A DNA stretch of 63,941 nucleotides, counting the filler, from Craspedostauros australis (Eukaryota), in the NCBI GenBank assembly GCA_030167865.1. It is 17 parts of 17 records of this genome, joined end to end, with 100 filler letters (N's around TTAATTAATTAA, not from the genome) between each part and the next. Parts side by side here need not be neighbours in the genome. Positions count along the whole stretch, not along the records: positions 48,448 to 53,006 come from JALAGF010000199.1; 16 more parts are not named here. One strand, 5' to 3'. The position numbers were made by a program, and so were the translations under genes. The notes below the pieces were generated by a model. It had not been told where the DNA came from and searched no databases. It was given only the letters and a program-made list of their open reading frames with translations. Shown here piece after piece: positions 2,699-56,221 of the stretch (its first letter is position 1; each line of letters opens with the position of its first letter).

Positions 2699-5600
2699 CA
2701 AGCACTGCAAGCCGCGCGCAGTCCGGCCGGCAGAGCAACAGGCAAGACAACACCGATCGATCAGGCACGGAAGAGGTGATCGATCAATTCGCCTCCATAG
2801 GTGGGGACACCCAAAACATCGTCCCAGGTCACATTCGGGTCGCAGCGCTCAACCTCGGCGGCCTACCCATGGACGAGACCGACCCCAAGTATCAGGACCT
2901 CTGGGAGACAATCCGCAAGTACAACGTCGACGTCATGCTCCTAACCGAGGTTGGTATCAACTGGAGCAAGGTGCCGCGGCACAAACGGCTCCACGAAATC
3001 GTCCAGCAGAACGTACCCCAGTCACGCACCGTCACGTCGCACAATCAGTCCAACCCGATGCGGGTGAGGCAGTGGGGTGGGACAGCAATCCTTATCAAAG
3101 GCAGCACCCGAGGCCGCATATTGACAAGCGAGAAAGACACCCACCAATGGGGCAGATGGGTCAGCGTGCTTCTACAGGGCAAAGGCCACATCAAGGTGCG
3201 GCTGGTGGCTACCTACGTAGCAAACCGGTCAACCAAAACCCCAGGAACGGTGTACAACCAACAGGCGTCCAATGCGGCTGCAGTGGGCATCGACGCGGAT
3301 CCCATCGACCTCCACCTGAGTGAGTTGCAAAGCCAGCTTCATCAATGGCGTCAAGCGGGTGAGACGATCATCCTGGGTGGCGATGTCAATATGGACGTGA
3401 GGAAGTCCCGAGTGAGTGCGATGTTGGCTGACGAAGGAATGACAGAGGCACTTTCCACGCAGCACCCACAGTCAGCAGCCACCCACATTCGGAACCGCAG
3501 CAACGTACAGATCGATGGCATCTGGTCCACTCCGGAGGCGATGGCTACTCAATCAGGGGCCACACCATTCGGTCCGTGGGACCATCGCATGGTATGGGTG
3601 GACTACGCAACCCAACAGCTCATGGGCAGAGGCCGCAGTCCAACACAACCATTCCGCGGTCGCAGGCTTCAGCTGCAAAGGCCGGCCACGGTCAGCCGGT
3701 ATCTCGACTCGTACGCCGAAGCGGCTCGACAGAGCAGGTTGCTGGAGCGCGCCAACGCGCTGGAGCGGGAGGTGACAGGGGCGCCCCTCACCCAGGAGCA
3801 AGCGAGAGCAATCGAGGACATTGATGCGGATCGCACGAAGGCTATGCTCAAAGCAGAGCGATCGTGCCGCAAAATCCGAGTGGGAAACGTCCCGTACTCG
3901 CCACTGGTGAACCGCATTCAGAAAGCCCATCAGTTCTGGACCGAGTCCCTGCGGCGAAGGTCGGGCCACCAGGTCAAAGGATCCACCATCGACAGGCTGA
4001 AGAAGAAGGCGCACCTGGAGCACGTCCGCACCCGTGACATGAGCACGGCAGACATGACAGTCGAGCGAAACAAGACGTGGCGTCAGCTCAAGAAGGAGAA
4101 ACGGCTGGCGGCGCAACACCGAGTCGATTTCCTCCGAGCGAATGAGGGATTCATCCAAGAAGGTGGCGGGGATCCCCTAAAATACAGGAAGCAGATGGCC
4201 GAACGGGAGGAGACCCGTGCGACGTTCAGACGCATCAAGCAAGCTCTGGCAGGCACGGCCAGCGACTCACAGGTCAGCATGGTCGTCCACGACGGGCCAG
4301 GCGGCAGCGGGGAGATTCTCACAGACTCCGAAGAGGTAGCAGGAGCATGCTGTGCGACGAACATCGCCAAATACCAACAAGCGTGGTCCTCCGAACTGTG
4401 CCAGCCAGGCCTGAGCCAACTCGTGGGCAAGTACGGCACGACCGCGGGCGCCGACGCCATCATCATGGGGCTGGTGCCGACACAAGTCCAGCACGGCACG
4501 TCAGAGCTTCTCATAGCTCTCCAGCAGTCGCCTCGAGTCACTCCGTGGCGCCCGTCCGACACCGTCATCTCCACGGAGTGCCACACAGACGGGTGGCGGA
4601 AGATCAAGGAGCGCACGTCTTCCGGTCCGTCCGGCATTCATTTTGGTTGTTGGAAGGCGAACACAAGGCGCCCAGAGCTGGCGGCCATCGACGCGATCAT
4701 GCGGTCGATTCCGTACTGCACAGGCTACAGTCTGCGGAGGTGGCAACAGTGCACCGACATTCAGTTGCGCAAGCAGCCAGGAAATCTGTCTGTCACCAAG
4801 ACCCGCACGATAGGGCTAATGGAAGGGGACTTCAATATGAACACCAGGCAGCTTGGCCGGGCTGCCAGGGGCCACGCTGAGCTCACTGGGACCATTGCCG
4901 AGGACCAATACGGCAGCCGCCAGAACCATACCGCTCAGGAGGTGCTCGCCAACGTCTGCATGGCGGACGACATTATGAGGATCTCTGGGAGAGCGACGGC
5001 GGTATGCTCCAACGATGCCAAAGGGTGTTACGACCGCATCTCACACCCCGCGTTCGGCATGGCCATGCGCCGCCAAGGCGTCCCCAAAGCTCCCATTGAA
5101 AGCGTGCTGCGCACACTGCAGCGCATGGAGCATCGCATCAGCATGGGGTCAGGTGTATCCAATACCAGCTATTCGGGTGCAGGTCTCTCCAACCCGATCC
5201 AAGGCCTCGTCCAAGGCCTGGGAGCTGCCCCCACGGGATGGCTCATGATCAGCTCGGCGCTGATCGAGCGAATGCAGAACAAAGGCTATGGGTTCCAGTA
5301 CGGCGAGACGGGCCAAAGGGAGCACCGGGTGGTCTGCTTCGCATATGTGGACGACACCAATCTCGTTCACTCGCTCGAGAGTTCCGACGCAGCATCGCAG
5401 TCACGCGAGTTCCAACACATGGTTTCCTTGTGGGAGAACATGCTCTCCGCTTCAGGAGGCTGCCTGGCACCTGAGAAAAGCTTCTGGCAGCTTGTCCGCT
5501 TCCGGTGGGGCAACTACAGATGGCAATACGACAGGCGAACCCAGCCCCAAGACATAACAATGCGGGGCGACGGCGAGCAAGGGCAGGTTCTCCAACACAA

Positions 5601-14532: not shown

Positions 14533-15409
14533 GCTGGCAAGACTAGCGCATGCCTGGAATCCTTGGGAAGCATCCTTCTCGATGAACAAGCTAGCTTCCT
14601 TTGGCTTTACTCATTCGAATGAGTCGAGCAGTTTATCCACGACACATATCATAAAATGTGGAGGCCAAGTTTGTCCGCACACGCGGATTCTCGTCTGTGC
14701 GGAACCAAGCGCATCGTCGCCCCGGACCTCTCCTGGAAGGAGCCTCTCCTCCGCCAACACAACACAACACAACACAACGATCGAGGAACGGAAACCCGCA
14801 TCAGCGCACTGCGACCAAACAGGGAAAACGCTGAGCAACACATGCACAATGCGCCACAACATGACACCAACCCCAGCGTCCTTCCTTCCGCCCTTTCCTT
14901 CGCACGGTCACCTATACCATCATTGCGTTCCGCCTCATCATCCATCACCAGTCATCATCGCATCGCTACTGCGGCATCGTGTTCGACCTTCCTGCCTCAC
15001 TACAAGCAAAGGGTGAGCATCCAGGTACGGCTGAGTATCACGTTGCACCGGGTATATAGTGCCGCCAACTGCAACGCTCTCCATTTCCCACGTTGCCACA
15101 CAGATTGATTGATGACTGCTCATGCTGACAGCGCCGTTGCATTTCACCTTTTTCACTTCGATCCATGCAAACGGACACTCCTGCGCCCATGTTCCACCGC
15201 GCACATCTTCCCATTTTGATACGTGTAATACAACACGCGTGACGCTACATCACACAGACGATCAGAGAACAGCCAGATACGATCGCACTACTCCACTTAC
15301 AAGTACATCTCCGATCAGCACAAACCACACCGATACGCCGCTGAACCAACTGGATCTCTCGCTCCCTCCCCCATCTTCAAGCGCGACGGCAAGTTTCAAC
15401 CACAGCCTG

Positions 15410-17710
15410 ATGGCATCCAACGTAGACAGACAGACCCGCGCATGCGAGACGTCGCTGATGCGCGCATGCCGGAACCAAGATATTGCACAGGTCAAGCATC
15501 AGCTCGAATCAAGAAGCGCATGCCGATATCCACCAGGAGCCATCAAAGACCCCGAAGGCAACACCGCCTTTCATTACGCTTGCGCCGCCAGCAACGCGGA
15601 CGTGGCGAAGTGCCTCATCGAATCCAAACACGGTTCCATCGACGTCAACGTGCAAAACAATAATCTGGAAACGCCATTGCACCGTGCCTGCAGAAACAAC
15701 TGCGTCCAGGTCGTGAAGTATCTGTGCGAAACGGATGACCTCAAGGTCAACCAGTTCATTCAAGACTGCTGGGGCACTCTGCCAATTCACATCGTGTGCT
15801 ACGATTGGTCCATCCCAATCCTGAAGATCCTGATGGAAGCCGACAAAACCAACTCAATTTGCAGCACACCAAACAAAAATGGCATTACAGCGCTCCATCG
15901 CGCATGCATGAACCACAATCTAGAGGTGCTCAAGTTCATGCTGAGTTCAACGACAGCCCAGAAGATCGACGTCAACGTGAAGGACACGGACGGGAAGACA
16001 CCGCTCCACTACGCATGCGAGCTGGACCACTCCAAGATACTGGCTTGCTTCATTGGGTCCAACGTACCCAACATGAATGCCAACATCCAAGATGACGAAG
16101 GAAGGACACCTCTCCACCTTGCTTGTCGCAGCCGCGACGACAGAATGATGCGGCTTTTACTTGATCGACATTCACATATGGATGTCGACCCAAACATTGC
16201 CGATAAGAACGGTGATACGCCGCTGCATCTGATCTGCTCCTCCGCCCAGAGAAAAGTAATCCAGAACATGATAAAGAAGCCGAGACTCCCAAAGCTCGAT
16301 TTCCACAGAAAGAACACGGAGGGTCACACTCCATTTGAGCTTGCATGTCGCCAGAATAAAGATCAAACCATGGCACCTTATTTGGTGATGTTGGATCCAA
16401 GCATTGACATCACTGTCCAAGACAGCAAATCCGGCGACACCCCGGTCCATTGTGCGTTTCGCAATGGGTCCGTCCGTGCGGTACGATGCTGGATGGCAAT
16501 CAAGAAGTTCCCCGAAGCTTTCCGCATCCAAAACAAGGATGGGGACACAGCTTTCCACGCCGCCTGCCGCTCTGAGAACGTGAATGTAGTCAGGTACTTG
16601 ATCGAGTCGAGTAAAGTGGACGTTGGCGTTCAGACGAAGAACGGAAAAGGTGATACTCTTTTTCACATCGCATTCGCTTCCAGAGGTCAAGACATGCTTT
16701 CATATCTGATCAAGTCACATGAAGCCGAGATGAAGAGAGAGATGCAAAACAATGATGGCAACACTCTCCTTCATGTCGCATTGATCGACAATCACTCGCG
16801 GAAGTGCCTGTCGTTGATATGTCCCAACAAGGGAACTTTGGACGCGACGATTCAGAACAAAGACGGCGACACGGCATTACACCTTGGAATGAAAAACAGC
16901 AACACAGACATACGCGCAATGATGCTTAAATCCGACTCTCTTGTTGTCGACGGCAGCATCCGAAACCACAAGGGGGATACTGCACTTCACGCCCTGTGCG
17001 CCAATAAGTCTGCCGACACGAGTACGGCGTATGCGTTTTTTGCATCGGACCTGCCAAACGTAAATTTCAATGCCCAGAACAACCATGGCGATACACCCCT
17101 GCATGTCGCATCCCGGGAGGGCTCCGGGTACATTCTCAGATATATCTCGAGATGGCACAAAGACAAGTTTGATCCCACCGTCAGGAACAAGAATGGTGAA
17201 ACACCCATGCACGTTCTCAAACGAGATCGCCGGTTATTTCCAATTGACGAGGAAATGAAGCTCACCAGACTCTACGATCTGATCCGAAACAGAGCCATAG
17301 GATACCGCAACTTGCATCAAGCCTGCACCGTCGCAAACGGAGATGCGATAGATCGGTTGATCGCGTCGGCGCCGCCATCGGCGAACCTGCAAGACAAGAA
17401 TGGCGACACTCCGTTGCATATCGCAGTCCGCCGAAACCTTTTGAGGTCAGCGGAGTCATTGGTAGCATTCAAGGGGGCAGACCCGACAATTCGAAACTGT
17501 GCTGGTGATACTGCATTACACACGGCCAGCAAATGGAATCGAAAGAGATTGCTGAAGTCATTGATCAAAGCAGAGAGTGTGGCTGCTTCTTCCGATGTGA
17601 AGAACCATGAGGGTAAAACAGCATTCGATATTGCGAACGAAAGGGGCTACGATGAAGTCAGAGTGCTATTGGATGAAGCTCGTCCGAACAAACGCATGAA
17701 GGTGACCTGA
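15410..17710 (+). CDS. Ankyrin-repeat protein (about 20 repeats); likely start MASNVD at 15410, frame open from 15122
   Basis: Repeated D..G.TPLH.AC units at ~33-37 aa spacing. C-terminal RPNKRMK is NLS-like. Confidence 0.92.
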   Translation: MASNVDRQTRACETSLMRACRNQDIAQVKHQLESRSACRYPPGAIKDPEGNTAFHYACAASNADVAKCLIESKHGSIDVNVQNNNLETPLHRACRNNCVQVVKYLCETDDLKVNQFIQDCWGTLPIHIVCYDWSIPILKILMEADKTNSICSTPNKNGITALHRACMNHNLEVLKFMLSSTTAQKIDVNVKDTDGKTPLHYACELDHSKILACFIGSNVPNMNANIQDDEGRTPLHLACRSRDDRMMRLLLDRHSHMDVDPNIADKNGDTPLHLICSSAQRKVIQNMIKKPRLPKLDFHRKNTEGHTPFELACRQNKDQTMAPYLVMLDPSIDITVQDSKSGDTPVHCAFRNGSVRAVRCWMAIKKFPEAFRIQNKDGDTAFHAACRSENVNVVRYLIESSKVDVGVQTKNGKGDTLFHIAFASRGQDMLSYLIKSHEAEMKREMQNNDGNTLLHVALIDNHSRKCLSLICPNKGTLDATIQNKDGDTALHLGMKNSNTDIRAMMLKSDSLVVDGSIRNHKGDTALHALCANKSADTSTAYAFFASDLPNVNFNAQNNHGDTPLHVASREGSGYILRYISRWHKDKFDPTVRNKNGETPMHVLKRDRRLFPIDEEMKLTRLYDLIRNRAIGYRNLHQACTVANGDAIDRLIASAPPSANLQDKNGDTPLHIAVRRNLLRSAESLVAFKGADPTIRNCAGDTALHTASKWNRKRLLKSLIKAESVAASSDVKNHEGKTAFDIANERGYDEVRVLLDEARPNKRMKVT

Positions 17711-24720: not shown

Positions 24721-27032
24721 CTCCATAGGCCGTCTTGACGACTCCGACTTCACCAAAGGTGCGAAGTCCGCTTGCATACTTCGGATCCTCTCCGAAGAAT
24801 AGGTGGTGTGGCGACTTGGTCTGTCCCTTCGCCACGGTGATGTTGGCGACCGCGGTCGCGACGTTGGCTGCCGCAGCCCATAGCCCATGTCTGTGCTCCT
24901 CGTTGAGCTGGGCGCCATTCAGCATGGATCGCATCTTTGTGTACAAGTATGCGAACTTGCGCTCGACTCTGCCGTTCTGTTGTGGCGTGTTGGATGCCGT
25001 GTATTCGAATGAGACGTCGAATCCGGCTTCGAGCAGATGGATCTCGGATGCTTTGTTCTCTCCGCTGTTGTCTCCACGAAAGATGATTGGCTGCCTGTTG
25101 GTGTGCGGCCGCATCTTCTGCAGGAATCGCTTCAGGAAGGCCGGTTGGTCGCTCTTGTTGGTGAGGAAGATGCTCCAGCAGTAATCTGTGTGGTCGTCTA
25201 TGATCAACACCCAGTACCGCTTGCTTCCGAAGCTCGTGTGCTTTGTGTAGCTGATGTCGATGAAGAATCGCTCACATCGTCGCGATGCTCTCGCGATGGT
25301 CGCCTTCGGGACGTTCTTCACTCGTGCGTTGGCGATGGCACAGTGCTTGCATGGCGGCATGGTGCCAATGATACTCCATCCATGATGTGATGCAGTTCGT
25401 TGCATTGCTTCAAGTGGGGTGTGTCCCAACATGCGATGGAGTGTGGACGCGTTGATGCCCTTCGGTGGATCCGATGTGACGGCCGCAGCCGTGATGTCTG
25501 TGCGTGGCTTGACTGCATGCATCTGCACACCAGTCACGAAACCATTTCGTGTGCAGAACACTCGATCGAACACGATCTTGTTCCCGTTGCCGTTTGCAAT
25601 GTCCATGATGATACCATTGTTGCCGATCTGGTATCCATTCTCCAGCGCCTTGTTCGTTGAGAACGGATTCACCCACATCTTGGGTGCGAACTTCACATCG
25701 TTCAGTCTGATGGTGCGCTGTGTGTTGTCGCGTTGCTTCACTCGGAGATAGATGGACCCCATCTTCGGTGAGTTGAGTTGCGTGTTGTCACCGACCTTCA
25801 CAAAGGACTGGATGTGGCGGATGTTGAACATCCCCTTGTCCGAATTCACAATGTGGCATGAGGCTCCACTGTCGGCGAGCCATGTGTGTTGATCGGGTGT
25901 GTCGGTGTGGTGGTCGGATGCACGAAAGCGCGTGCGATCCACAACCATGATTGCCAACTCGTCGTCGTAGGAGGAATCGTCATCATCATCGGATGATTCG
26001 CTCGTGCTGCAATCGCCCCAATCGATTGGAGGGCGCATTGGTGCTGCCTGCTGTGGTGGTTCCGGTCTTGCCTGTCGTGGTGGCTCAGGTCGCCTCTCCT
26101 GTGGTCGGTGGTGAAGGAGTGCCGCCATGCATCCTCCGAGGATGAAGTGCCNCTCCATGATGCTCAGTGGTGGTTGGCCGTGACGCTCGAGGATCCTGTT
26201 GAGAATCATGCTGTTTGCCAGGATCTCCTCGATTGACAGAAGCTCTGCCCTGACGAACATCGTTGACACTCGTCCGACGAATGCCATCTGGATACGTCGA
26301 TTGTTCGGGAACAGGTTGCAGGCCGCGTTGAGGATGGCGTTTGCGATCACTTGACGTTGTTCGATCTCGGCCGTGAACGTTGGATACGGCACAGTGTCGT
26401 GCCTGCCGTGCGCCCCTCGTTGATTGAAGAAATCCGTGGGCCCGAAGCGTAGGCCGGTTGGGAAGATCACGTCTTCGTGTTCATTGAAGACTCGCTGACC
26501 TTCTGGTCTGGGGGGACGGAATCTGTACTGGACGGCTGGTTGCCAAGTTGCGTCGCTGTCGTCGTCTCCGTCGTCTTGAGCGATCTCTTCTTCGGCGGAG
26601 CCAGCGGCTGACGCCTCTTCAAAGAGATTGTCGTCCAGGAGCATGTCTTGCTCAATCGGGGGCTCCCCGGCTTCCTTCATGGCGAGGATATCGATGTCCT
26701 CCTCGGGGTCTTCTTCTCGGTTGCCGTTGCTCGGCAAATCGTGCACGTTGAGGCAGTAATCGAAATCGAGATCAAAACGAGGCTCGTTGTCGAGCGCCAC
26801 CTCGTGGATGATTGGTCCGTCGTTGAGCCATGCTGGGATGCTCATGTTGTTGTGGACCTCGTCTGTTCCTGGAAAGTGTTGGAAGGTTTCAAAGAATGAA
26901 TCATCGACGTCGTAGGCGGTGTGAGTGTGTGAGGGTGTGTCAAGCATGGTCATCACCATCTCGAATCCGTCATCAGCGCCGTCTTGCGCCGTGCTTCCTT
27001 GCTCTTCCTGCTTTCTCTTTTCGTTGAACTTT
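24721..27032 (-). CDS. pol: Copia A pol (acidic insert, protease, integrase), partial; separated from gag by a 1-nt indel
   Basis: Colinear with the copia B polyprotein from KFNEK onward, with DSGA protease and DDE integrase motifs. Confidence 0.88.
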
Positions 27033-28497
27033 TCTTCCTGCAGTCTGCTTCTCGATGCCCTGGGATGCCACAGTAGTGGCACTTCCCACTGAAGCCGTTG
27101 CCACGACCTCTTCCTCTGTTGCCGCGGTTGCCTTGATTGCCGCGCTGATCTCCTCTTTTGCCTCTGTTGTTGTAGCCTCCTCGTCGGCCGTTGTTGGATT
27201 GATGGTTGTTGTTGTTGTCGGCCACTTGCTTTCTGTCTGGACAATTCGCAGACCGATGGCCATACTTTCCGCAGTTGTGGCAGTTGCCCTTGAATCCGCC
27301 TGTCGCAGCTACTGCCGCGTCGTCGCGCTTGCTGCCCGTATCTGCAAAGTCGTCCACGTACGCCTTTCCACCTTGGAGTTTGGAGTATCTGTAGTTCAGC
27401 ACATTCCGGATGGCTTCGATCGTCACCTTCTCTGGACCCATCTGAAGTTGGTATTTGAAGTTGCTCACTTCGTCGTCGTAGTCCTTGCTGAGGCTGCTGA
27501 GGACTTGCATGATCAGTTCTCTCTCACTGATCTCGTAGCTCACGTCTTGGAGACGAGTGCGAAGCAGCTCAAGCCTTGTGACGTAGATGTCGGGATCCGT
27601 ATCCCTTGCCATGCGCTTGGTGTTGAATTGGCGCTTCAGTCGCAGCACCGTGGATGTGTCAGTCGACTGGTACTTCTCTTTCAGCATCTTCCATGCTGCA
27701 GCTGGATTCCCCTTGGGGTGTTGCTCGTCGCAGCATTGGTTGATCAGCTGGATTGCCTGCTTTCCAGTTCCTTGCTCTGCATCCATCATCAGGATCAGAT
27801 CACTGAAGCAGTCCAGCGCCAGCTCGCGCGTCTCTTCAAGGGCCTCCCTCTTCTCTTCGTCACTCTCTCTCTCAATGTCCTCATTTGTTGGGATGGTCTT
27901 CTCTCCCATCATGATGTCCTTGAATCGTTGCGTACGCGCGTATGCCTTTGCCTGCGACTCCCACGCATTGTAGTCTTCCTTCTTCCCGCTGAAGAGTGGG
28001 GCCTTGCGCCTCTTGTACGTTTCCTTTGTCATCTTCTTCTTCGATGCTGTCTGCTTGCTCGTGTCTTGTGTGCTGCCTGTTGATTCGCTCTCTTCTCTCT
28101 CTTCTTCTCTCTCTGACTCTTTGTTGTCGTTGGATGCGAGGGGATCGATGCTGCTGTCTCTCTCTGACATGCTACCCCTGTCTTCTGTTTCCGTCTGCTG
28201 GACTTCTGTCTTGTACGCTTCCACTTTGATTGATTGCTGTGATGGAGTCGATGTGGGTGGTTCTGTTGATGCCGATATCGGTCTTGGCTGGTCTCTCTGC
28301 CGCGTCTCTGCGCCGGCGCTTCGTGCAGCTTGCTCTGCTTCTGTTTCAATGATGGCTCCTTGCTGAGCGCTTGTTTGTTGGATGGGTGCACCCGCTCCTG
28401 CTCGCGTGAGGTTCAGAGTCTCGTCCTCGTCCTCCTCGGTCTCGTCCTCAATCACTGGTGTGAGAGGGAATGCAGTCTCTTCGGTTTCTTTGCTCAT
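26953..28497 (-). CDS. gag: Copia A gag (two zinc knuckles)
   Basis: FSGKKEDYNAW, AWKMLKEKY, CHNCGKYGHRSANC and CHYCGIPGHREADC. The reading frame slips at ~27030 relative to the copia B homolog. Confidence 0.9.
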   Translation of the reverse strand: MSKETEETAFPLTPVIEDETEEDEDETLNLTRAGAGAPIQQTSAQQGAIIETEAEQAARSAGAETRQRDQPRPISASTEPPTSTPSQQSIKVEAYKTEVQQTETEDRGSMSERDSSIDPLASNDNKESEREEEREESESTGSTQDTSKQTASKKKMTKETYKRRKAPLFSGKKEDYNAWESQAKAYARTQRFKDIMMGEKTIPTNEDIERESDEEKREALEETRELALDCFSDLILMMDAEQGTGKQAIQLINQCCDEQHPKGNPAAAWKMLKEKYQSTDTSTVLRLKRQFNTKRMARDTDPDIYVTRLELLRTRLQDVSYEISERELIMQVLSSLSKDYDDEVSNFKYQLQMGPEKVTIEAIRNVLNYRYSKLQGGKAYVDDFADTGSKRDDAAVAATGGFKGNCHNCGKYGHRSANCPDRKQVADNNNNHQSNNGRRGGYNNRGKRGDQRGNQGNRGNRGRGRGNGFSGKCHYCGIPGHREADCRKKSSTKRESRKSKEARRKTALMTDSRW

Positions 28498-28723
28498 TCA
28501 GCGCTCGTCTCGCTTCTCGTCTCGTCCTTGATCACTCGTGTGAGAGGGTATTCTGCCACTTCAGTCTCTTCGGTTCATTCAGCGCCTCGCGCTCTTCGTT
28601 TCGTCCTCGATCACGCACGTGAGAGGGTATGCTAGCTTGTCTCTTTCTCGTCGCTCATGCAGCGTCTCTCGCTCTTCGATCTCTCCTTGCACAGGGCTTC
28701 CCTGGTGCTAACGTTTATAAACG

Positions 28724-29289
28724 TGTTGGAAGGCTCCGTGCACGGAGAATCGGTAGTAGTCACACTCTTTGTCGAAAGTGTTTCTGTTACTGTTACTGTT
28801 GTTGCTATTGATTGTTGGTGAGCGAGCATGGGGTATGAGATGATCAAGATGCTCTCTTGATCCATCTCTTCCTTGCTCTCATTGCTTGGTGCAATCCTCT
28901 TGCACCTCCATGCACATTGCTCTCATGTTGCTCGTTGATGTTGACTTGATCGTCAACGTTGTCGTTTCTCTCTCGTTGTCTCGTCGTTGTTCCGTTCTCG
29001 GGTTTTGTTGGATCTGATGATTGATCGAATCTGATGGAATGTTTAAAACATATTTCATTCCTGCAGACCTGGTAGGTAAGGTCTTGAGGTGACGTCACAT
29101 GTGGTGGATACTGTGGTATCCGCTGGTATCGCGGTATCCTGGCGTCGTAGTATCGCAGTGTCCTCGTGGTACAGCGATGGTATCCCTGTGACGTCATAGT
29201 TTTGTGTCGTGATTCCGCCACCAAATAGTCTAGATGGCGGCAAGCAAGTGTGACTGATGAATACACATCCGAGTACACACATTCCGACA
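28724..29289 (-). repeat. 5' LTR of copia A (~566 bp)
   Basis: Minus-strand termini TGTCGGAA...TTCCAACA form a 7/8 inverted repeat with TG...CA ends. Followed by the same 12-mer that follows LTR-B in copia B. The outer boundary is inferred from the inverted repeat only. Confidence 0.72.
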
Positions 29290-29345
29290 AAGTCATACCT
29301 TGACACATCGAGAACATTCGAATGACCAAATGCACACAGGAAGGG

Positions 29346-30144
29346 TGTTGACATGTACATGTGAGTATATGCCGAGATGTACGTGTATATGTGCATCGTT
29401 CACCCGTTATTCTCTCATACGCACTTGGACGGTACACTACATTCGTGTCAATAGTATGCTGTGATTCGTCAGAATTACAGCAGAAATGGAACACACGAAA
29501 ATGAGCAGAATTTCTGGAGGAAATTTGCAATCGACGATTTCTGAGAGAATTAGAAACATCGTCCGTCCATCCGTCAATGGAAACGTATGGTACCAAGCGA
29601 ATCTCGAGGTACTTCCCAACTAAGCCTCAGATGACGATATCATCTGACAGACCACTGCATCACCAATGGAACTTGGCATCTGGAGAGCAGAAGGACGCCT
29701 ACTGATGTTGACAGGATGTCATCATGTCACCACGTCGACATCTGTCTCCAGGTCAGAACAGGAGGCAAAGATCTGATGACCAAAGGACATCAAGATCATG
29801 GATACGAGAGGTGAAGTTCAAATGGTAAGTACTCATGGAGTAGGAACCAGTAATGAACAAACGGAGTATCGAATGCGGAGTACACATCAAACACAAAGTA
29901 TCATGTAGCACAAGTACACGATATTGAGAGAGAGAGAATACGAAGAGTAGGGAGAGAGCATCTCGCACACCAACTCATAGTCAGAGACTGAATCTACAAG
30001 ATAGACAAATGCGCTGAGAGCATCGGGCAAGAGAACAGACACCGAGAGGATCGGAGTGCTCAAGTAATGAAATAGCAAACAGAACGACTATCAACAACAC
30101 CGTCTTCCACGATCGTAGGCTTCCGTGAGCGGAACTTGCCAACA
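29346..30144 (+). repeat. Solo LTR, family B (~799 bp)
   Basis: TGTTGACATGTAC...GGAACTTGCCAACA, colinear with copies at 36245-37052, 48448-48814, 55929-56221 and 62698-62779. Contains an internal (AG)n tract. Confidence 0.9.
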
Positions 30145-36244: not shown

Positions 36245-36447
36245 TGTTGGCAAGTTCCGTGATTGGAAGCCTACGATCGTGGAAGACAGTATTGGTTGAT
36301 AGTCGTTCGTTTGCTATTTCATTACGTTGGCACTCCGATCCTCTTGGTGTCCGTTCTCTTGCCCAATGCTCTCGGCACGTTTGTCTGTTTCGTAGATTGG
36401 GTCTCCAACTATGAGTCAGTACACAAGGTGCTCTCTCACTGCTATCA

Positions 36448-36485
<38 letters not shown>

Positions 36486-37052
36486 ATTTTGTGTTCGTGT
36501 TCCATGATACTCCGTGTTCGATGCGTACTCTGCACTCGACACTCCGTTTGTTCACTGCTGGTCCCTACTCCACGATTACTCACCACTTGAACTCCTCTTC
36601 GTGTAGCCATGATCTCGATGCCCTTCGGTCATCGAATCTTCACCTTCTGCTTCTGACATGGAGACAAATGTTGACATGGTGACATGATGACATCCTGTCC
36701 ACACCAGTAGGCGTCTTTCTGCTCCCCAGATGTCACGTTCCATTGGTGATGCAGCAGTCTGTCAGATGATATCGTCATCTGGGTTTAGCTGGGAGGTAGC
36801 TCGAGATTCTCTTGGTACCATTGATGGATGGACGGACGATGTTCTAATTCTCTCAGAAATCGTTGTTTGAAAATTTCCTCCAGACATTCTGCTCATTTTC
36901 ATGTGTTCCATTTCCACTGTAATTCTGACGAATCACAGCATACTATCGACACGAATGTAGTTGTACCGTCCAAGCGCGTATGAGAGAATAACGGGTGAAC
37001 GATGCACATATACACGTACATCTCGACATATACTCACATGTACATCTCGACA
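36245..37052 (-). repeat. Solo LTR, family B (~808 bp)
   Basis: Reverse-complement match to 29346-30144 across its length, with termini TGTCGAGA...GCCAACA. Confidence 0.9.
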
Positions 37053-44429: not shown

Positions 44430-47225
44430 TCAAGCGGCATGGCCGGCTGTTGTGTTGCGACCGGCGACTCTGCCCCCGTGCATTGATGTCGCCATTTGCT
44501 GCCAGGATGGCGAGACATTGTGCAAACTCTCAGTCGATTTCAGCGGATCTGCGTCGTCCCAATTCACCCCGTCACCTTCTCTTTCGTCCGCAGCTGCCGC
44601 CTCCAAGGATTCCATCTTCACGTACTTATCCCAGTAGTCCTTCAGGATCTCCTCCCCGCGTTGTTCCCATTCGATGCGGTTGGCCTCCGCGTGGGTCAGG
44701 TACTCGTTCGATGTCACGCCAAGGACGTTGCAGGTCTTCAACCGCCTCGCCAGAGGGATGACGTAGAAGTCGAAGAACTTCATTTCACCTTCGTACCAAT
44801 CCTTCGATGGATCCTTCGTGATGTGTCCATCCCGGAAGGCCTTGTACATTTCTTGGAACAACCGTTCGTTCCATTTGATGTACGTGTGCCAATGCTGCAT
44901 GGTGTGTGCAACATCCGCCGCCTGCAGGAAGTGCTCGTACACTACCGTGGCCTGGAGGTCGGTGTGGTTGTCAGGATGAGAGATGGATGTCCTTGATCGG
45001 ATGGATGTCCTCGATGCGGTGGATGCTTGTGATGAAGCTGATGCTCTGCCTGTATTAGGCGCGGGCATCGCATCTGGTGGATTCTCACCACCGTCCTCCA
45101 TCACGCCATCAGCCTCCCCAGCAGCTTCAGTTGCAACTGCGGCGGCTGCGGCCGCGGCGTCTGCGGACACCGAGGAACGAACGGATTCGTTGTTGAATGC
45201 GGTCTCCCACCGTTTCTTTCTGTGCAGGTTCAGTTTCTTGTCCATGATGTCCGTGGCCATGACAGCTTGGACGACGAGCTGGCGGAATCGACCCAGCTCT
45301 GCTTGATCGGTGTAGATACATGCTCTGAGCTTGGTGAACTGTGGTTCCATCAGCAGGTTCCATGCCAAGTCAACGGAATGCTGTTCGGCGATGGACTTGT
45401 TGTTGTAGAGCTTGGCGATGGTGTGCTGATGCTCCGTCAGCGTGGAGTTGGGAACACCGAGATGATCGACGTCGTGCACCAATGCGGAGAAGACGGCCGC
45501 GAATTGGACCAACGGATCGGAACTGAGACCTTCGATGACGGGAAGGTTGGGCTCTTCGAGATCGCCGCTCGAGATGCGCGAGAACAGGATCCGGAGACCC
45601 TGCACCACATGGCTGGCGTGCGCGAAGGAATGGAAGTCGTTCTGACGGTAGAGGCCGGCGACTGTTCTGACGAAGTCGGTCAGCTGCACCAGGACGTCAT
45701 GGGAGAGATCGAAGGCTTCCATATCGCGACGACGGGTGGAAGAGATTGCATCGTTTTTGAATGGCAAGAAGTTGCGAACTTCATTGATGGTCATTGCCCC
45801 GAACGGCTGCTTGATGTCCATGTTCTCGATCATGGCAACGTAACCACTTCGTCCATCGCGCGAAGCTACGAGCTTCTTGAGGAGCTGCTCCAGGACCTTC
45901 ACGTTCCACTCGATGTGGTGCTCCAGTTCCAATCCGCGCGTGGATTCGGCATTGTCGACAGCTGGATGGACGGCAGCCTCGTTGGGGCTGTCCTCGGAGT
46001 TTGCATCGGAGAGGCGATCGTTGGGACTAGAAGCGGAGGACGGTTCGCCCTTCAAGACGCCCCAGTACGTCTTCATCTCGCCCTTCCCCTTTGCGGTCAC
46101 CACATCCTCACGAGGACGGACCCAGGCGCTCTTGCCGTGCTTCACAATCTCATCTGCTGTATCCTGTGACATGTGGATACGATTGGGAGCTCCGGAGCTT
46201 TCGACTCGAGCGGCCGTGTTGACGGTGTCGCCGAAGAGCTGGAATCGTGACTTCTGTCCTCTCAGCACCCCGGCTGTGACAGAACCTGAGTGCATGCCGA
46301 ATCGCATGGACAGCTCCGCCGTGTCGGGACCGAGTGAGCCGGCGAGATGATGCACGATGTCGTTCATCTTGGCGAGGCAGTGACGGCAGAAGCGGAACAT
46401 GACGATGGCATGGTCATTCCTGGGCTCCGGTAGGCCGCACGCGGCGACGTAGCAGTCGCCGATGGTCTCAACCTTGAAGACCCCCATGCGGACCGCAATC
46501 TTGTCGAATGCGTTGTAGATAGACTCGAGGAGGGTGAAGACTTCGACTGGTTCCCGTGTGCTGGACCATGCCGTGAAACCGACGATGTCGGCGAACAGCA
46601 CGGTGGCGCTCTCGAAGAAGTCCGCAATTGGGCTTGAGTGAGAGTTGCCTCCATTTGCAAGTTGCGCCTCGTGGTCGTCGGGATGGCGATGGCCGTTGCC
46701 GATGCGGAATGCATCCAGCCGCTTGCCTTGATTGGGCTTGGTGGTGTCCGGCCCTTCGTTGTCGAGCAGACGGTCGCGGACATTCTCAGGGAAGAGGCTG
46801 CTGACGATGGCGTGGGACTTGGTGGCCGTGGTCAGCACCTTGTTTTGACGCTTCTCCACCACCTGATCGTACAAGATGAAGAACATTGCTGTCATGAAGA
46901 AGATGAGCACCACGACGACCGTGTTGATGATGGCTTCGCTGTCCCTGTAGGTGTCGCGGAATTCCGTGGATGGGTAAAGATGGAAGGAGTACGTGCACTC
47001 CTCTGTGCTTCGGAAAGCAGTGAACTTGGTGGAGACCTCCAAGTAGTTGTAGGTCGTCTCATGAAGGTCGCCTGTTCCCAGGTATTCAACCCTGGGTCCA
47101 TCGATGAGGTAGGTGAGGGATTGATCGCAGGTATTGCGGACGACCATGTAGATGCCGTCGATGTCTTCAGGGACGAGGTTGAGGAAGTAGTTGTGCCAAG
47201 GCATTTGGGCTGTCAGCTGGCCCAC
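44430..47225 (-). CDS. Receptor-type class III guanylate/adenylate cyclase - phosphodiesterase fusion (5'-partial)
   Basis: TM helix, then FADIVGFT, KVETIGDCY, RFGMHSG and RFQLFGDTVNTAAR. PDE motifs FHSFAHA, HDVDH.G..N, EQHS, ATD and ADVAH. Confidence 0.93.
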   Translation of the reverse strand: MGQLTAQMPWHNYFLNLVPEDIDGIYMVVRNTCDQSLTYLIDGPRVEYLGTGDLHETTYNYLEVSTKFTAFRSTEECTYSFHLYPSTEFRDTYRDSEAIINTVVVVLIFFMTAMFFILYDQVVEKRQNKVLTTATKSHAIVSSLFPENVRDRLLDNEGPDTTKPNQGKRLDAFRIGNGHRHPDDHEAQLANGGNSHSSPIADFFESATVLFADIVGFTAWSSTREPVEVFTLLESIYNAFDKIAVRMGVFKVETIGDCYVAACGLPEPRNDHAIVMFRFCRHCLAKMNDIVHHLAGSLGPDTAELSMRFGMHSGSVTAGVLRGQKSRFQLFGDTVNTAARVESSGAPNRIHMSQDTADEIVKHGKSAWVRPREDVVTAKGKGEMKTYWGVLKGEPSSASSPNDRLSDANSEDSPNEAAVHPAVDNAESTRGLELEHHIEWNVKVLEQLLKKLVASRDGRSGYVAMIENMDIKQPFGAMTINEVRNFLPFKNDAISSTRRRDMEAFDLSHDVLVQLTDFVRTVAGLYRQNDFHSFAHASHVVQGLRILFSRISSGDLEEPNLPVIEGLSSDPLVQFAAVFSALVHDVDHLGVPNSTLTEHQHTIAKLYNNKSIAEQHSVDLAWNLLMEPQFTKLRACIYTDQAELGRFRQLVVQAVMATDIMDKKLNLHRKKRWETAFNNESVRSSVSADAAAAAAAVATEAAGEADGVMEDGGENPPDAMPAPNTGRASASSQASTASRTSIRSRTSISHPDNHTDLQATVVYEHFLQAADVAHTMQHWHTYIKWNERLFQEMYKAFRDGHITKDPSKDWYEGEMKFFDFYVIPLARRLKTCNVLGVTSNEYLTHAEANRIEWEQRGEEILKDYWDKYVKMESLEAAAADEREGDGVNWDDADPLKSTESLHNVSPSWQQMATSMHGGRVAGRNTTAGHAA

Positions 47226-48447: not shown

Positions 48448-48814
48448 CATGAAGATCATGGATACTGAAGGTGAACTTCAAATGGTAAGTACTCATGGAG
48501 TAGGAGCCAGTACTGAATGAACGGAGTGTCGGATGCGGAGTACGCATCGAACACGGAGTATCATGCAGTACAAGCACACGATGTTGAGAGAGAGAGAGAG
48601 AATACAGAGAGGAGCGAGAGAGCATCTCGCGTACCGACTCATAGTCGGACGACCGAATCTGCGAAACAGATTGAAGCGCCGAGAGCATCGGGCAAGACAA
48701 CTGGTGTACACCGAGAGGATCAGAGTAGCCAACGTAATGAAATAGCAAACAGACGACTATCAACCAACACCATCTTCCACGATCGTAGGTTACCGTGAGC
48801 GGAACTTGCCAACA
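48448..48814 (+). repeat. 5' LTR (3' part) of copia B
   Basis: Matches the distal half of the solo LTRs and ends GGAACTTGCCAACA. Confidence 0.9.
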
Positions 48815-48896
48815 CGTTTATAAACGATAGATCAGGGCGAGCCCGCGGATCGTATCGTGCGAGGAAGACGAACATCATTCAAGAGCAGCAAGCTGA

Positions 48897-51800
48897 ATGA
48901 GCGGGGAAGAGGAATTGAAAGACATTCCTCTGTCCAATCCGGCTATCAAGAGAGAAGAAGGTGCAAGTGAGACTCCACCACGAGAAGAGAAGGAAGCAGC
49001 CGCGACTACTGTCCTATCAGGCGCACACGCAAGCGCAATCAACAAGACCGAAGAAGAATGGTCTGCAAGACTACACCGCGAGGAGAAGAGGATTCTCAAG
49101 ACGGTCAAGCAAGAGGAGACTGGTGTGACGAAGAGCATTCCCACAGCCAAACAGGGTGGGAAAAGTGAGACACCACCAGGAGGAGAATTTGTGAGCAAAT
49201 CAATCCTCGCGAAACAACAAGCGGAAATCGAAAAAGTGACAACACAGAAACAGATGGAAATCAAGGGCGCGAGCGCACCAACAACGAAACAACGAATCAA
49301 CATGGCGACATCAGCCAACATGAACAAGCGACGTATCAAGGCGTCGATGTTCAGCGGTGAACAGGAAGACTACAGCGCATGGGAGTCCCAAGCAAAGGCA
49401 TACGCTCATACACAGAAGACAAGAGACGTGATGTTGGGCAAGACGAAGATTCCAACAGTGAGTGAGATCGCGGCAGCCACCGGCGAAGTCAAGGAAGCGA
49501 TGGAGGAGATATACGAACTGGGATGCGACTGCTTCAGTGATCTGATCCTCATGATGGATGCAGAGAAAGGAAAGGGCAAGCAGGCCATCCAATACATCAA
49601 CCAGTGCGTCTCCGACGATTATCCCGAAGGAGATCCACACGCAGCGTGGAACGTTCTCGCGGAGAAGTTCCGTCCATCTGACGCAGCAACGAAGATCAAA
49701 CTCAAACGTCAATTCAACAACAAAAAGATGAAGAAAGACTCGGACCCCGACATCTACATCACGCGACTCGAGGGTCTACGCTCGCGTCTCCACGATGTCA
49801 AGTACAAGATCACGGACGAGGAGATGATCATGCAAATCCTCAGCACGGTGAGCAGCGAATACAGAACTCACATCGTGAACTTTCATCATCAACTCACGTT
49901 TAATCCGGAACTGGTTACCATCAACACGATCAGAGGAGTACTCCGCACTGCATACGCCACGCACAGAGGAGGCAAGGCGTACATCGACGACTTCCAAGAC
50001 AGCAACACGAAGAGCAACGACACCAGCTTCACAAGCACCGGTAACTTCAAGGGTACCTGCCACAACTGTGGCGTGTATGGTCACAGATCTGCTGATTGCC
50101 CAGAACGCAAGAAATCGAACAACAAGAACAACAACAACAACAACAAGATGAACGGAAAGCGCAACAACAATCGCAACAAAGGAAGTAGCTTCAACGGGAA
50201 GTGCAACTACTGTGGCATCTTCGGACACCGCGAGGCAGAGTGCCGAAAGAAGAAGTTCAACGAGAAGAAGAAGGCCGACGAGCAGGCCAACACAGCAACA
50301 GAAGGACACGACAAGAGCGGGCACGAGATGGTACTCTCGGCAAAGGACATGCCGCTCTGCATGTTGGTGTCCGACGACTACATCGAAGACTCCTTATTCG
50401 ATAACTTCGAGTACGTCGGGAATGACGACGAAGTGCAGGACGATGAGATCGTCCTGGAGTGGCTCAGCGAGGAGCCAATCATCCACGAGGTGGATCCAAG
50501 ACGCGAAGTGAGCTACGAATGCTGCTTCAACGCGCACGACCTGATCGGACCATACGGCGACGAAGCCGAGATGGGCAACGAGGCCATCGATAGCGACATC
50601 GAAGAAGCCATGAGTGAAGAGGCCGACAACGAGATCAACGACAATGATAGAGGCCGAGACGAAACGAACGGCGGCGCAGCACCGCCTCCTCCAGTGGCGG
50701 GGAACAACAGATCGGGTATCTTCGACAAAGATGACAGCGACGAAACCGAGGATCATCCGGACGACAGCTTCAATCCAAACGAGCGTGTCGTCTATCCAAG
50801 AGACATCGACTTCCCATCGATTGGGAATCCCAACGAATCAAACTACCTCCATCGTCATGACACCATTCCGTACGGAACGGAAACAGCATTGATAATCCAG
50901 AAGAAACTCATCTTCGATGCTGTGATGGAAGCAGGGGTGAAACTGTTCCCAGGAGTCGCACAAGGAGTGCTGAGACCAATATGGGTAAACATGATGGGAT
51001 CGATCCTATCCGAGAACTTCAGATCAATCGAAGAGATCCTCGCCAATTCGGTTGTCATCAATCGCATACTGGAAGCGGCTGAGACAGAGACAATCCCAGA
51101 GACGGATCTTCATTACATCCTTGGAGGGTGCATGCGTGTGCTCTTGCGCGAACGACCACGCGTCAACCCTTACGATCCAGCCACAGGATCACATCGGAAC
51201 AACACAATCCCGTCGGACTACGCACAATTACCCGACGACATGGACGATGAGGACCACCGCCATCCATACAACGAAGATGGAGTTCACGAGGATGAAGACG
51301 ATGAGAACTTCGATGACGAGATACCTGCGGCAGCCGTGGAGCAGCTCCACGAGCTGAGCACCAGATACAAGGACACTTGGCTCGCCGACAGCGGAGCTTC
51401 GTGTCACATCGTCAATTCAGACACCGCTCTCTTCAATGTGCGGCACATCAAGTCCTTCGTCCAAGTGGGAGATAGCACGAAGCTGGACTCTCCCAAAATG
51501 GGATCCATTCGCTTAAAGGTCAAGCAACGAGACAACACTGGCCACATCATCCGGCTCGATGATGTGAAGTACACACCAAAAATGGCAGTGAACCTTTTCT
51601 CCACGAACAAGGCTCTGTACAACGGTTACCAGCTTGGTAACAACGGCATTCTGATGGACATCATCAACGGATCCGGAATGAAGATCGTATTCGACCGAGT
51701 CTTCCCCACATCCAACGGATTCATCACAGGAGTGCAGATGTATCCCATCATGCCAACGGACGACGACAAGGCTTGCACAGCTATCATCAAGAATCCATCC

Positions 51801-53006
51801 AAGGAGATCAGCGCAGTGAACTTGCATCGAATGCTCGGCCACGCGCCACTCGAAACCATGAAGCGGACGGCCGCTCAGTACGGATGGAAGATCATTGGCG
51901 AGATGCCGGTATGTCGCGACTGCGCGGTCGCGAACGCAAGAGTGAAAAACATCCCGAAGGCAACCATTCCAAGAGCAACTCGCCGCGGCGAACGACTCTT
52001 CATTGACATTAGTTACACTAAACACATAAGCTTCGGAGATAAACGCTACTGGACCCTGATCGTGGACGACTGCACGGATCACTGCTGGAGTTTCTTTCTC
52101 AAGAACAAAAGTGATCAACCAGGGTACATCAAATGATTCGTCCAAACGATCAAATCACAGACTGGTGATCAACAAATCATCTTCAGAGGTGACAACAGCG
52201 GAGAGAACAAATCCACGGAGGATACTCTCATCGATGCAGGACTCAACGTGAAATTCGAATTCACGGCATCGAACACGCCGCAACAAAACGGCAGAGTGGA
52301 ACGCAAGTTCGCGTATCTCTACACCAAGATCCGCTCCATGCTCAATGGAGCACAGCTCGACGAAGAGTATAGGCATGGCCTGTGGGCAGCAGCTGCGAGC
52401 ACTGCCACCGCCATCGCCAACATCACCATAGCGAAGAATCAGAAGGAGTCACCACATCGACAATTCTTTGGCAGCGATCCACCATATGCGGATGCACTCC
52501 GCACATTTGGAGAAGTGGGTGTTGTGAAGACTACCTACGGCGGGATCACCGCTAAACTCAAGAACAGAGGAGAAGAGATGGTGTTCATCGGATATGCACA
52601 CCAACACGCATCAGGGGTCTACAACATGTACAGACCANNNNNNNNNNNNNNNNNNNNNNNNNNNNNNNNNNNNNNNNNNNNNNNNNNNNNNNNNNNNNNN
52701 NNNNNNNNNNNNNNNNNNNNNAACATATCCAACGAAACAGGAACAACGGACGCAGACGGCTTCACAACCATCGGACGGAAGGGAGCAACGCCAAGAACGG
52801 CAACGCGTCAAACATCGGAAGCGAAGAGAGTATCTTTCGCTGCCAGTAACAGATACTACATCCTATCAGACAGCGATGATGAGGATAATGAGGACGACGG
52901 AGCAGTGACTCAACTAATCCAAAATGACGAGGAAGATCGGAGCGAATCCAATCATGAAGATGATGAGATCCTACCATCCGGCGACGAAGCCGACGATGAC
53001 ACAGGC
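48897..53006 (+). pseudogene. gag-pol: Copia B gag-pol with a premature TGA at 52134-52136 inside integrase
   Basis: The 1079-aa ORF continues in the same frame after the stop (FVQTIK..IIFRGDNSGEN..PQQNGRVERK). The stop aligns to Arg in copia A. Confidence 0.9.
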
Positions 53007-53688: not shown

Positions 53689-55460
53689 GGTGCTTGATGC
53701 CTTGTCGATCGATGGTTTCGAATGGTGCGAAGTATTGCGGGGTCTGATGTTGCGAGACCCGACGGATTATACCGACACTGTCTTGAAAGAGCGTGTTGGT
53801 ATTGGCACGTGGATGTATTTGTGTATGAATGAAGTGGCAACGGTCTCTCTCTCTCTGAAGCGAGGACGTTGGCACGTTCAGCTGCAAGGATGAAGAGCCG
53901 GGGAATGCGATGTGAGTGCTGGTGCTCTCCTTCGTGACAACAGACTGTTGGCAGGGATGTTCGCAAGCACTATGTCGTTTCTGGTCACGGCCTTCAAGGC
54001 ATCACGATGGCGCCGCGCAAGTTTGGACACTGCTGTTCCAGCAACCCGAAATGGCTCCAGGTGGACAGCGAAGGAGGCACGAGAGACACTTGGAAACGGT
54101 AATGAATGTCGCAGTGTTCTTCGTTGGTGCTTTGGATGGAGAATGGGTCATGGATGGACACAAGCGAAGTTCTGAACGGCTATTGCGAACATTTATGGTG
54201 ATTAGGCAATGTGCCACATAACGTTTGTTCCGAGTGTTCGCGAATGTCGGCGACCTACGAGAACAAGACAGGTTCCAACCAATGCACAAACTGGCTTGTT
54301 GTATTTGAGTTATTCAGCATGCCCGCAACGACAACAACATGTTGACGTGGAAAAGTCCGTCGCTGAACCGAACACGGATTGGCCATCAACACAGAATGTT
54401 CGACATGGCGAGACTGATGTGATCCAATCCTGCTAAGGTCAATCTGAACAACATGGCTCCCAGTGTTCGAAGCCCATGCCCGCACTGCAGGTGTCTTTGC
54501 TGTTGTTCTCCTGTTGATGTTGAGCACTTGATCTTGCTCATGTTCTGCACAACAAGAGTTCAGAACAAGCAGTCCTCCGACATTGCCATGCAACAGATCC
54601 AACAAGAAGAATCATCAGCCATTTCACGGAGTAACACGACCCAAGATAGAGAGAAGATACCACTAACGAACCAGTACCACAAGACGATTTGCTATGTTGG
54701 TGAAGTAGTGTTGAATAAATTGTATTATACCGTAGCTCCACAATCGCTACCATTGAGGTCGCGGATCCTTCCCAAATCACAGAGAAGCATGAAAAATACA
54801 CTAAGTCCCATCCTGTTCCGTGCGAAGAAGAACACAGAACACAACAGAACACAGCACCTCCATTCAACGGCACAAATAACCATTCAGACACGATCTGATA
54901 CAACGCCACGTATACCACAACACCCCTTTTCCACACAGAACAACAATCTCCTTCAACACACCAAACCAGACTTAATCTGTCCGAATGACCACAACACCAC
55001 CTCACTTATGCTCCGTTCCGGCTTCTTCCTCCGCTCCGTCTTGGTTGCGAAGTGCCGCAATCGTCGTTTGTCAACGACACACAGGCTGCGTACTTCTGCA
55101 ACTGCACGCGCAGAAACACAACAGTATCGCACACATCCACGGAGAATTACGCACAATCGGATAATCGCAATGGAACTCCTCCGTGACCTTCGGATAAAAC
55201 GGCACATCTTCTTCTCCCGTCTGTTCTCCCTCGCGTAACTCACCGATTACGGGAACGCAAACACGTGGTAATGGTGTGCGCTGACGGTAACACGATGACG
55301 CCACCACACAACCACACGACCACAAATCAACACGGAAGTCAACACGATGTCCCAACCGCACCTTCCTGAATTCCGCCAACTCCATCTCATAAAACCAAAT
55401 CACCATCCACCTCACTCCAACTTCCTTCGAATCAACCCAACTTGACACAACAATACAACC

Positions 55461-55928: not shown

Positions 55929-56221
55929 GAACGGAGTGTCGAATACGGAGTACGTATCGAACACGGAGTATCGTGTGCGACGAGCACACGATGTTGAGAG
56001 AGAGAGAGAGAGTACAGAGAAGAGCGAGAGAGCATCTCGCGTACCGACTCATAGTCGGAGACTGAATCTACGAAACATATTGAAGCACCGAGAGCATCGG
56101 GCGAGAGAACGGCGTACACCGAGAGCATCGGAGTAGCCAAGTAATGAAATAGCAAACGAACGACTATCAACCAACACCATCTTCCACGATCGTAGGTTAC
56201 CGTGAGCGGAACTTGCCAACA
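55929..56221 (+). repeat. LTR family B, 3' part (3' LTR or solo LTR)
   Basis: Highly similar to 48520-48814 and not followed by the palindromic 12-mer. Confidence 0.9.

Follow-up and report, generated by a model that had tools for sequence, protein, structure and literature searches.

A covarying palindrome at the primer-binding position of copia retrotransposons from Craspedostauros australis and metagenomic relatives, and its possible role in priming

Introduction

Copia retrotransposons that lack a tRNA primer-binding site (PBS) have been described in fungi. In the GalEa elements there is instead a 9-bp sequence, palindromic with the last A of the LTR and followed by its inverse complement (PMC5445492). 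The part of that report consulted here weighs Tf1-type priming and a dimer initiation site (DIS) for this palindrome, and no model fits. The fungal sequence (CHSeq1) occurs in essentially two forms, CTGATCAGT and CTAATTAGT; the latter, found mostly in low-GC fungal families, could be a product of RIP. How reverse transcription starts in PBS-less copia elements has been open since the fungal CHS were described without a mechanism. Also PBS-less are the bivalve TRIMs, which have inverted repeats (PMC6934838).

Priming from an element's own RNA is known from Tf1 and sushi. Tf1, a gypsy-type element, primes with the first 11 nt of its transcript, which RNase H releases by cutting an RNA duplex (PMC7175516); the duplex at the PBS is about 11 bp long (PMC7175516, PMC4600332). 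Palindromes that join two genomic RNAs include the retroviral DIS, PAL1 and PAL2 of Ty1 and the PBS-PAL of MMTV, all beside or within a working tRNA PBS (PMC6844567).

The window analysed here is the whole stretch of 63,941 nucleotides (filler included) from Craspedostauros australis, in which separate contigs are chained by N44-TTAATTAATTAA-N44 linkers. A preliminary description of this DNA had proposed that a palindrome replaces the PBS in two divergent copia families, and that this might be an undescribed mode of priming. The suggestion of novelty does not stand, since the consulted part of PMC5445492 already describes, without a mechanism, a palindrome replacing the PBS in fungal GalEa copia. 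In the literature covered (outside Repbase, GyDB and subscription journals, and in part as excerpts), no such site was found for diatom or CoDi6 copia elements beyond what PMC5445492 and PMC6934838 contain. The consulted parts of PMC3601003 and PMC3587641 contain nothing on a palindrome site, and neither does the main text of PMC2806351, as distinct from its supplement on structural features, on a CoDi6 primer site.

Results

Layout of the sites in the window

The palindrome CGTTTATAAACG is present at 48815-48826 (+) and 28712-28723 (-), each time immediately 3' of the LTR end CCAACA. Its reported place directly behind the terminal CA of the 5' LTR was thus confirmed for both copia B and copia A. 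Downstream of both sites is a copia gag (Retrotran_gag_2 and zf-CCHC; Pfam). The features of the window copies are:

48448..48814, + strand: 3' part of the copia B 5' LTR, cut by the contig start, with the end CCAACA; aligns with three LTR-B copies
48791..48810, + strand: U5 arm of the predicted U5-leader stem of B (duplex -20.7 kcal/mol)
48815..48826, + strand: palindrome CGTTTATAAACG at the PBS position of copia B (sequence match)
48835..48860, + strand: leader arm of the predicted U5-leader stem of B (folding prediction)
48897..52136, + strand: B ORF for gag, protease and the start of integrase, 1079 aa, two CCHC knuckles; terminates at a stop within integrase in the window copy
28724..29289, - strand: copia A 5' LTR, 566 bp, TGTCGG...CCAACA; start set by the A-family loci L104 and L143
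28728..28752, - strand: U5 arm of the predicted U5-leader stem of A (duplex -27.3 kcal/mol)
28712..28723, - strand: the same palindrome at the PBS position of copia A; 14 nt (28711-28724) once the last A of the LTR is counted
28679..28703, - strand: leader arm of the predicted U5-leader stem of A (folding prediction)
26953..28497, - strand: A gag ORF, 514 aa, two CCHC knuckles
24721..27244, - strand: A protease-integrase part in a different frame, cut by the contig end
29338..29345, + strand: polypurine tract AGGAAGGG of a B element; the same tract precedes the 3' LTR of locus L144
29346..30144, + strand: complete family B 3' LTR, 799 bp; internal control, with the palindrome neither behind nor inside it
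36245..37052, - strand: second complete LTR-B copy, no palindrome behind it
55929..56221, + strand: partial LTR-B copy, no palindrome behind it

In a self-alignment of the window, the similarity of the B 5' LTR to the three other LTR-B copies breaks off exactly at 48814. The spacing to the palindrome is zero, which supports the view that the palindrome takes the PBS position. Also upheld was the report that the palindrome is missing from the LTR-B ends at 30144, 36245 and 56221, which have unrelated DNA behind them. With its polypurine tract and B pol end, the LTR at 29346-30144 is not a solo LTR but a 3' LTR. Element A (LTR 29289-28724) lies within the pol end of a B element (about 29290-29325), and the B polypurine tract and 3' LTR follow.

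Scanning the window with up to one mismatch to CGTTTATAAACG gave no third site, and there is a single match with two mismatches, at 55065. The window contains about 20 other perfect 12-nt palindromes, contig linkers excluded. Palindromes of this length are not rare in themselves, and the significance of CGTTTATAAACG lies in its identity plus its position. An assembly artefact was ruled out; the linker sequence differs, and the feature recurs in unrelated assemblies.

Copies A and B share 46% identity in gag and 69% in protease-integrase. By these identities they are sister families, and alone they count as one observation rather than two. Evidence from outside the pair was therefore needed for the shared 12-mer.

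Several other features of the window were recorded. The gag and pol frames of copy A differ at 26953-27244, and L143, of the same family, reads through. The A leader contains tandem repeats of about 85 nt that extend into the start of gag (28412-28678), and their number varies among copies. Also present are a LINE-type element (86-8286; ORF1 of 870 aa and an endonuclease-RT ORF2 of 1864 aa), an RT-RNase H from another copia lineage on a separate contig (20400-22964, -), and host genes for a guanylate cyclase-phosphodiesterase fusion (44430-47225, -) and an ankyrin-repeat protein (15122-17710, +).

Copies across the genome

Genome-wide, CAACA followed by the 12-mer has 73 exact matches, not all of them independent insertions as some contigs look duplicated; a reversed-pattern control has none. 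Each of the 30 matches that were fetched is followed by a leader of the A or B type. Searching the genome for gag without regard to the motif yielded 145 matches. Among 20 further stretches picked for divergence, of which two are decayed copies and two do not show the site, families D and E have CGTTTCGAAACG in the same position.

When the four central bases were freed, 138 genomic sites matched (control, 13). By hand count of the 100 sites listed, the centre is TATA in 52, TCGA in 45, TTAA in one and non-palindromic in two. Freeing the CpG positions gave 77 perfect sites among the 100 listed (hand count); of the 23 variant sites, three look like chance matches. The commonest change is G12->A (nine of these 100, all of the TATA form), followed by C1->T (seven), and the T1/A12 double change is absent from the 100 listed genomic sites. 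Judged from the G12->A copies of family B, the base adjoining the LTR seems not to need to pair in copies that appear to have spread. Five B-type loci with a common LTR-end variant (L062, L064, L078, L147, L149) all have A at position 12, giving a 10-bp palindrome.

Metagenomic relatives

Relatives were collected by protein alone, through protease-integrase alignment against metagenomes, which gave 79 loci from the best 80 of 107. A gag match was present in 56, of which 47 had at least 60 nt upstream; 32 loci were dropped before the count. The criterion was preset as the best palindrome of 10 or 12 nt behind NNCA, at most 400 nt from gag, and by it 38 of the 47 relatives have a perfect palindrome. 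Shuffled sequences gave a mean of 1.2 and a maximum of 5, and a coding-window control 6 of 174. Among the remaining nine, L177, L178 and L203 have one mismatch at the same place, L153 is doubly decayed (by eye), L191 is perfect across the end overlap of its contig, the contigs of L167 and L201 start inside the site, and L183 is too short. L226, a distant relative on a long branch, has neither a palindrome nor a recognisable tRNA site before gag. The assembly search gave no upstream DNA for the outgroup-like family L245/L246, and the limits of the palindrome clade are accordingly provisional.

The LTR pairs of L163, L200 and L204 diverge exactly after AACA, with the palindrome behind the 5' LTR alone. 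Zero spacing to the LTR end is thus set independently by these pairs and by the LTR copies of the window. In 27 of 27 flank-distinct elements the site starts at the first base after the LTR (26 AACA, one AGCA), and this is true of 10-mers and 12-mers alike. The perfect 12-nt forms are CGTTTTAAAACG, CGTTTATAAACG, CGTTTCGAAACG, CGCTTTAAAGCG, CGCTTCGAAGCG, CGCTAATTAGCG, CGTTATATAACG and TACTTTAAAGTA; the perfect 10-mers are CGTTTAAACG, CGCTATAGCG and CGCTTAAGCG.

Viral contigs gave one weak locus and prokaryote genomes none, and an Rfam search with seven loci found no match. About 230 nt before gag, L168 has a 33-nt near-perfect inverted repeat within the LTR, and L161 has a 16-nt palindrome in a similar place.

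Covariation

Fifty elements were reduced to 27 with distinct flanks, of which 23 have 12-mers that were aligned gap-free, in 21 distinct rows. The preliminary description had asked whether relatives keep palindromy through compensatory changes, and they do: five of the six pairs vary on both sides, and there are no one-sided changes. Pairing was found in 99.2% of 126 cells, a value that is partly built in because the sites were picked for palindromy; the unbiased figure is the 38 of 47 given above. None of 500 shuffles equals the observed covariation, and slid registers are 23-52% paired. The informative point is the variety of forms, not the pairing percentage. The innermost pair is UA in 12 rows, AU in five and CG in four, and the next is UA in 19 and AU in two. 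Pair 4:9 is invariant, and the CG ends are almost fixed.

Form switches occur within separate branches (support of at least 95) of a quick tree based on 50 protease-integrase rows and SH-aLRT only, with five short rows excluded. Here TTAA/TATA switches occur twice (L174/L200 and L154/L161), and there are switches of TCGA/TTAA (L190 group/L196 group) and TATA/ATAT (L181/L186), and also in L173/L209. Symmetric CpG decay was rejected as the source of paired changes: it cannot yield TATA, TTAA, AATT and ATAT, and it cannot turn U-A into C-G at pair 3:10. Long ORFs and a CpG o/e near 1 are found in most carriers, with lower o/e values in L209 (0.38) and L202 (0.65).

The central bases would form the loop of a hairpin, and so can pair only between two strands. 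Paired changes that include the centre thus suggest pairing between two RNAs. The covariation itself fits any function that needs two-strand symmetry, the DNA level included.

Predicted RNA structure

Folding prediction pairs the final 26 nt of U5 ahead of AACA with the element's own leader at a mean of -15.3 kcal/mol, compared with -9.5 for cross pairs. This specificity was equalled in 0 of 10000 permutations, and the own leader ranks first or second in 17 of 27 elements. In the window, the U5 arm of B (-20.7 kcal/mol) fits its own leader better than all 26 other leaders, and that of A (-27.3 kcal/mol) places its own at the top of 27. The stem fit is weak, with a mid-field rank, in L178, L185, L186, L204 and L207. 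The loop enclosed by the predicted stem is 20-37 nt long, mostly 22-32, and the palindrome is predicted to sit in it. At 28734-28747 and about 48792-48805 there is a small alternative U5 hairpin (CTCCG-loop-CGGAG in A, TTCCG/TACCG-loop-CGGAA in B) that competes with the U5-leader stem; it may be a switch.

For 11 perfect variants, the predicted dimer has -10 to -21 kcal/mol versus 0 to -2.6 for the hairpin. When whole junctions of two copies were co-folded, the palindromes paired strand to strand in eight of nine cases, with a gain of 8-16 kcal/mol. The earlier suggestion that the palindrome could let two genomic RNAs anneal is therefore favoured by both the covarying centre and the predicted folding energies.

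Search for another primer

Comparison of upstream or LTR stretches with the site (38 tests, including the complete LTR-B) gave best runs of 5-9 nt, which is the shuffle level. The LTRs of the window contain no complement of the site within two mismatches. With no upstream complement, Tf1-type priming in the form given by PMC7175516 is excluded wherever the LTR is complete. Across 64 tRNA strings (nuclear and organellar, with near-duplicates and an incomplete nuclear set), the best run is 8 nt, compared with 9.2-9.9 for shuffled strings. For this set, the earlier statement that the site fits none of the usual primers holds: no tRNA 3' end, tRNA half or LTR stretch is complementary above chance. 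Neither of the two outcomes named in advance as fatal to the idea, such a complement or free loss of palindromy among relatives, was thus encountered. The spread of variants is also hard to square with any conserved tRNA.

Other copia lineages of the same genome do have such sites. The host iMet tRNA is matched at its 3' end by 19 complementary nt in L243 and 12 in L242, and in its 5' half by 14 nt in L250 and L251, whereas the palindrome clade has no such complement. Detection of these iMet sites indicates that the tRNA test works where such sites exist.

Priming by a half of tRNA-Ile, the first lead, was dropped after CGTTTCGAAACG and further variants turned up. On a mitochondrial-type contig (C1217; L041:14-87), the acceptor arms of tRNA-Arg(UCG), CGTTTA and TAAACG, equal the halves of the A/B palindrome. 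As a primer these arms are non-contiguous and fit one variant only, and the match was treated as chance. More than 20 of 100 listed tRNA-pattern matches belong to one tRNA-like repeat without a clear anticodon arm (C537:769-817, C768:725-773, C835:236-284 and others), which is probably a tRNA-derived SINE.

Discussion

Comparison with known systems

The palindrome feature is real, widespread and strongly constrained. Its nearest counterpart is that of GalEa, as described in the consulted part of PMC5445492. Both are found in copia elements with no tRNA PBS, as a conserved palindrome directly behind the CA of the LTR that begins with C, may include the last A of the LTR and has a proposed PBS role, with no Tf1-type complement. 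The GalEa palindrome is 10 nt long and that of the elements here 10-12 (14) nt, and the clades differ by RT motifs. GalEa has its two forms, whereas the elements here have many two-sided changes. Neither CTGATCAGT nor CTAATTAGT is among the 16 site sequences of our 50 elements, and CGCTAATTAGCG has the core CTAATTAG in common with fungal CHSeq1. A downstream partner of the CHSeq2 type reaches 8 of 9 matches in three of 27 elements, with a mean of 6.2 versus 5.9 for shuffled sequences. In its place is the predicted U5-leader stem, with the palindrome in the loop that it encloses. The start of the B leader (48827-48835) is ATAGATCAG, one letter off both fungal CHSeq2 forms (ACAGATCAG, ATAGATTAG); there is no CHSeq1-type partner, and the likeness is probably due to chance.

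GalEa proteins have the motifs KSRLV, DITQAY, QTDD and CQPEA and a single C-C-C-H knuckle (PMC5445492). The B-related L144 has ARLVA, DVVTAF, YVDD, SRPDI and two CCHC knuckles. Differing in these motifs and lacking CHSeq2, the elements described here do not belong to GalEa and at most function in the manner of its CHS. Membership of Ty1/copia is indicated by the PR, IN, RT and RH motifs of L144, in that order, by the LTRs and polypurine tract, and by the gag, knuckle and protease barrel that Pfam identifies in the window ORFs. The elements look CoDi6-like, a likeness drawn from described features rather than from alignment to a named CoDi6 reference: they share the copia order, the RT motifs of the main Copia lineage, and the tandem CCHC knuckles reported for CoDi6.2-6.5 (PMC2806351).

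The tRNA-free priming from own RNA proposed below is shared with Tf1 and sushi. The Tf1 primer is the start of the transcript, whereas here the only complement is the site itself. The palindromes of retroviruses, Ty1 and MMTV join two RNAs, as is proposed here; they accompany a tRNA PBS, and the palindrome here replaces it.

A proposed mechanism

Where minus-strand DNA starts determines where the LTR ends, and the primer must therefore end at that spot. Something must pair there, and the site is the only complement that follows every variant. This points to another copy of the element RNA that would pair there and, either cut at the palindrome or terminating in it, prime, a reading to which we give a probability of roughly 0.55.

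The palindrome would serve as a self-complementary primer-binding site. A predicted stem between the U5 end and the leader would keep the LTR end and the palindrome in a loop, and two element RNAs would join through their palindromes in a duplex of 10-14 bp, as the covariation suggests. A cut or a short transcript would provide a free 3'-OH on one strand at the 3' end of the palindrome; a cut would most likely be made by the element's own RNase H, as in Tf1. The free end would face the first base behind the partner's LTR, from which reverse transcriptase would copy U5-R. The second strand transfer would use a match between the primer palindrome, as copied into plus-strand strong-stop DNA, and the copy of the site in minus-strand DNA. 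Otherwise the usual cycle would stay the same. Dimer formation and priming would be one step, with no host tRNA.

Some observations weaken this reading. A symmetric duplex offers no obvious reason for cutting one strand alone. The outer pair is loose in family B (G12->A), and the T1/A12 double change, a possible product of copy-correction by the primer, is absent from the 100 listed sites.

Alternative explanations

The palindrome could instead be a dimerisation or packaging signal only, with a primer that is invisible in the sequence (a protein, or a very short or split tRNA contact). A palindrome in a stem loop has the layout of a dimer initiation site, and the covariation and energies fit equally well. 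Palindromes drive the dimerisation of Ty1 RNA, and MMTV has one inside its PBS (PMC6844567). Against this, the known cases also have a tRNA site and none was found here, and nothing obliges a signal of this kind to begin with the base right behind the LTR, as it does in all 27. We consider this explanation unlikely.

Improbable in our judgement is fold-back priming, in which a single RNA, cut after the palindrome, primes from its own hairpin. The 3' end would land correctly with one molecule, and four-pair hairpins are predicted for most variants. Yet each of the five forms seen (TATA, TTAA, TCGA, AATT, ATAT) has a self-complementary four-base loop, which a hairpin does not need; hairpin energies are about 0, with no hairpin predicted for TACTTTAAAGTA or CGTTTAAACG; and the cut would probably strip the site from the template, leaving no overlap for the second transfer.

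Similarly little weight is given to a role of the symmetry in DNA, where a dimeric protein might bind it or where it might assist plus-strand transfer or end processing. Dimeric DNA-binding proteins do read two-fold symmetry including the centre, and the invariance of pair 4:9 and near-fixed CG ends would be in keeping with this. Sequence and length, however, vary while symmetry is kept, even within one genome (the 52 TATA and 45 TCGA centres), and priming would be left unexplained.

In anticodon loops, purine 37 and U33 are fixed. A short tRNA-half site, with positions 2-9 pairing to the anticodon arm of tRNA-Ile(IAU) for TATA or tRNA-Arg(UCG) for TCGA, would end at tRNA position 40 as in Drosophila copia, and in that register host tRNA-Arg(UCG) offers an 8-nt run with one G-U and tRNA-Ile(AAU) 8 nt if A34 is inosine (by eye); it is very improbable and largely refuted by the variants. 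Purine 37 or U33 would be disrupted both by the 10-mers and by forms with A at position 5 (CGCTAATTAGCG, CGTTATATAACG), 8 nt is below the shuffled-tRNA level and the 14 nt of the true iMet-half sites of this genome, and the palindrome is not explained. This rejection is tempered by the tRNA set scored, which covers part of the nuclear isoacceptors; a nuclear Ile(UAU) tRNA was not found in the genome search.

Significance

Relative to the fungal data, what is new is the many natural two-sided changes, including those at the palindrome centre. The broader form of second-RNA priming, that a large copia clade has abandoned tRNA priming and that two packaged RNAs pair at a palindromic PBS, one being cut to prime the other, is tentative and falls somewhat short of an even chance. 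If true, it would be a fourth way to start minus-strand synthesis, beside tRNA, tRNA-half and Tf1 priming, in which one RNA of each pair is spent and dimerisation and initiation are a single step. It would also explain the fungal GalEa CHS, which would imply more than one origin of the solution. A clade with no fewer than 145 gag matches in this genome would then escape annotation tools that rely on a PBS. The elements would be independent of host tRNAs and beyond the reach of tRNA-fragment silencing.
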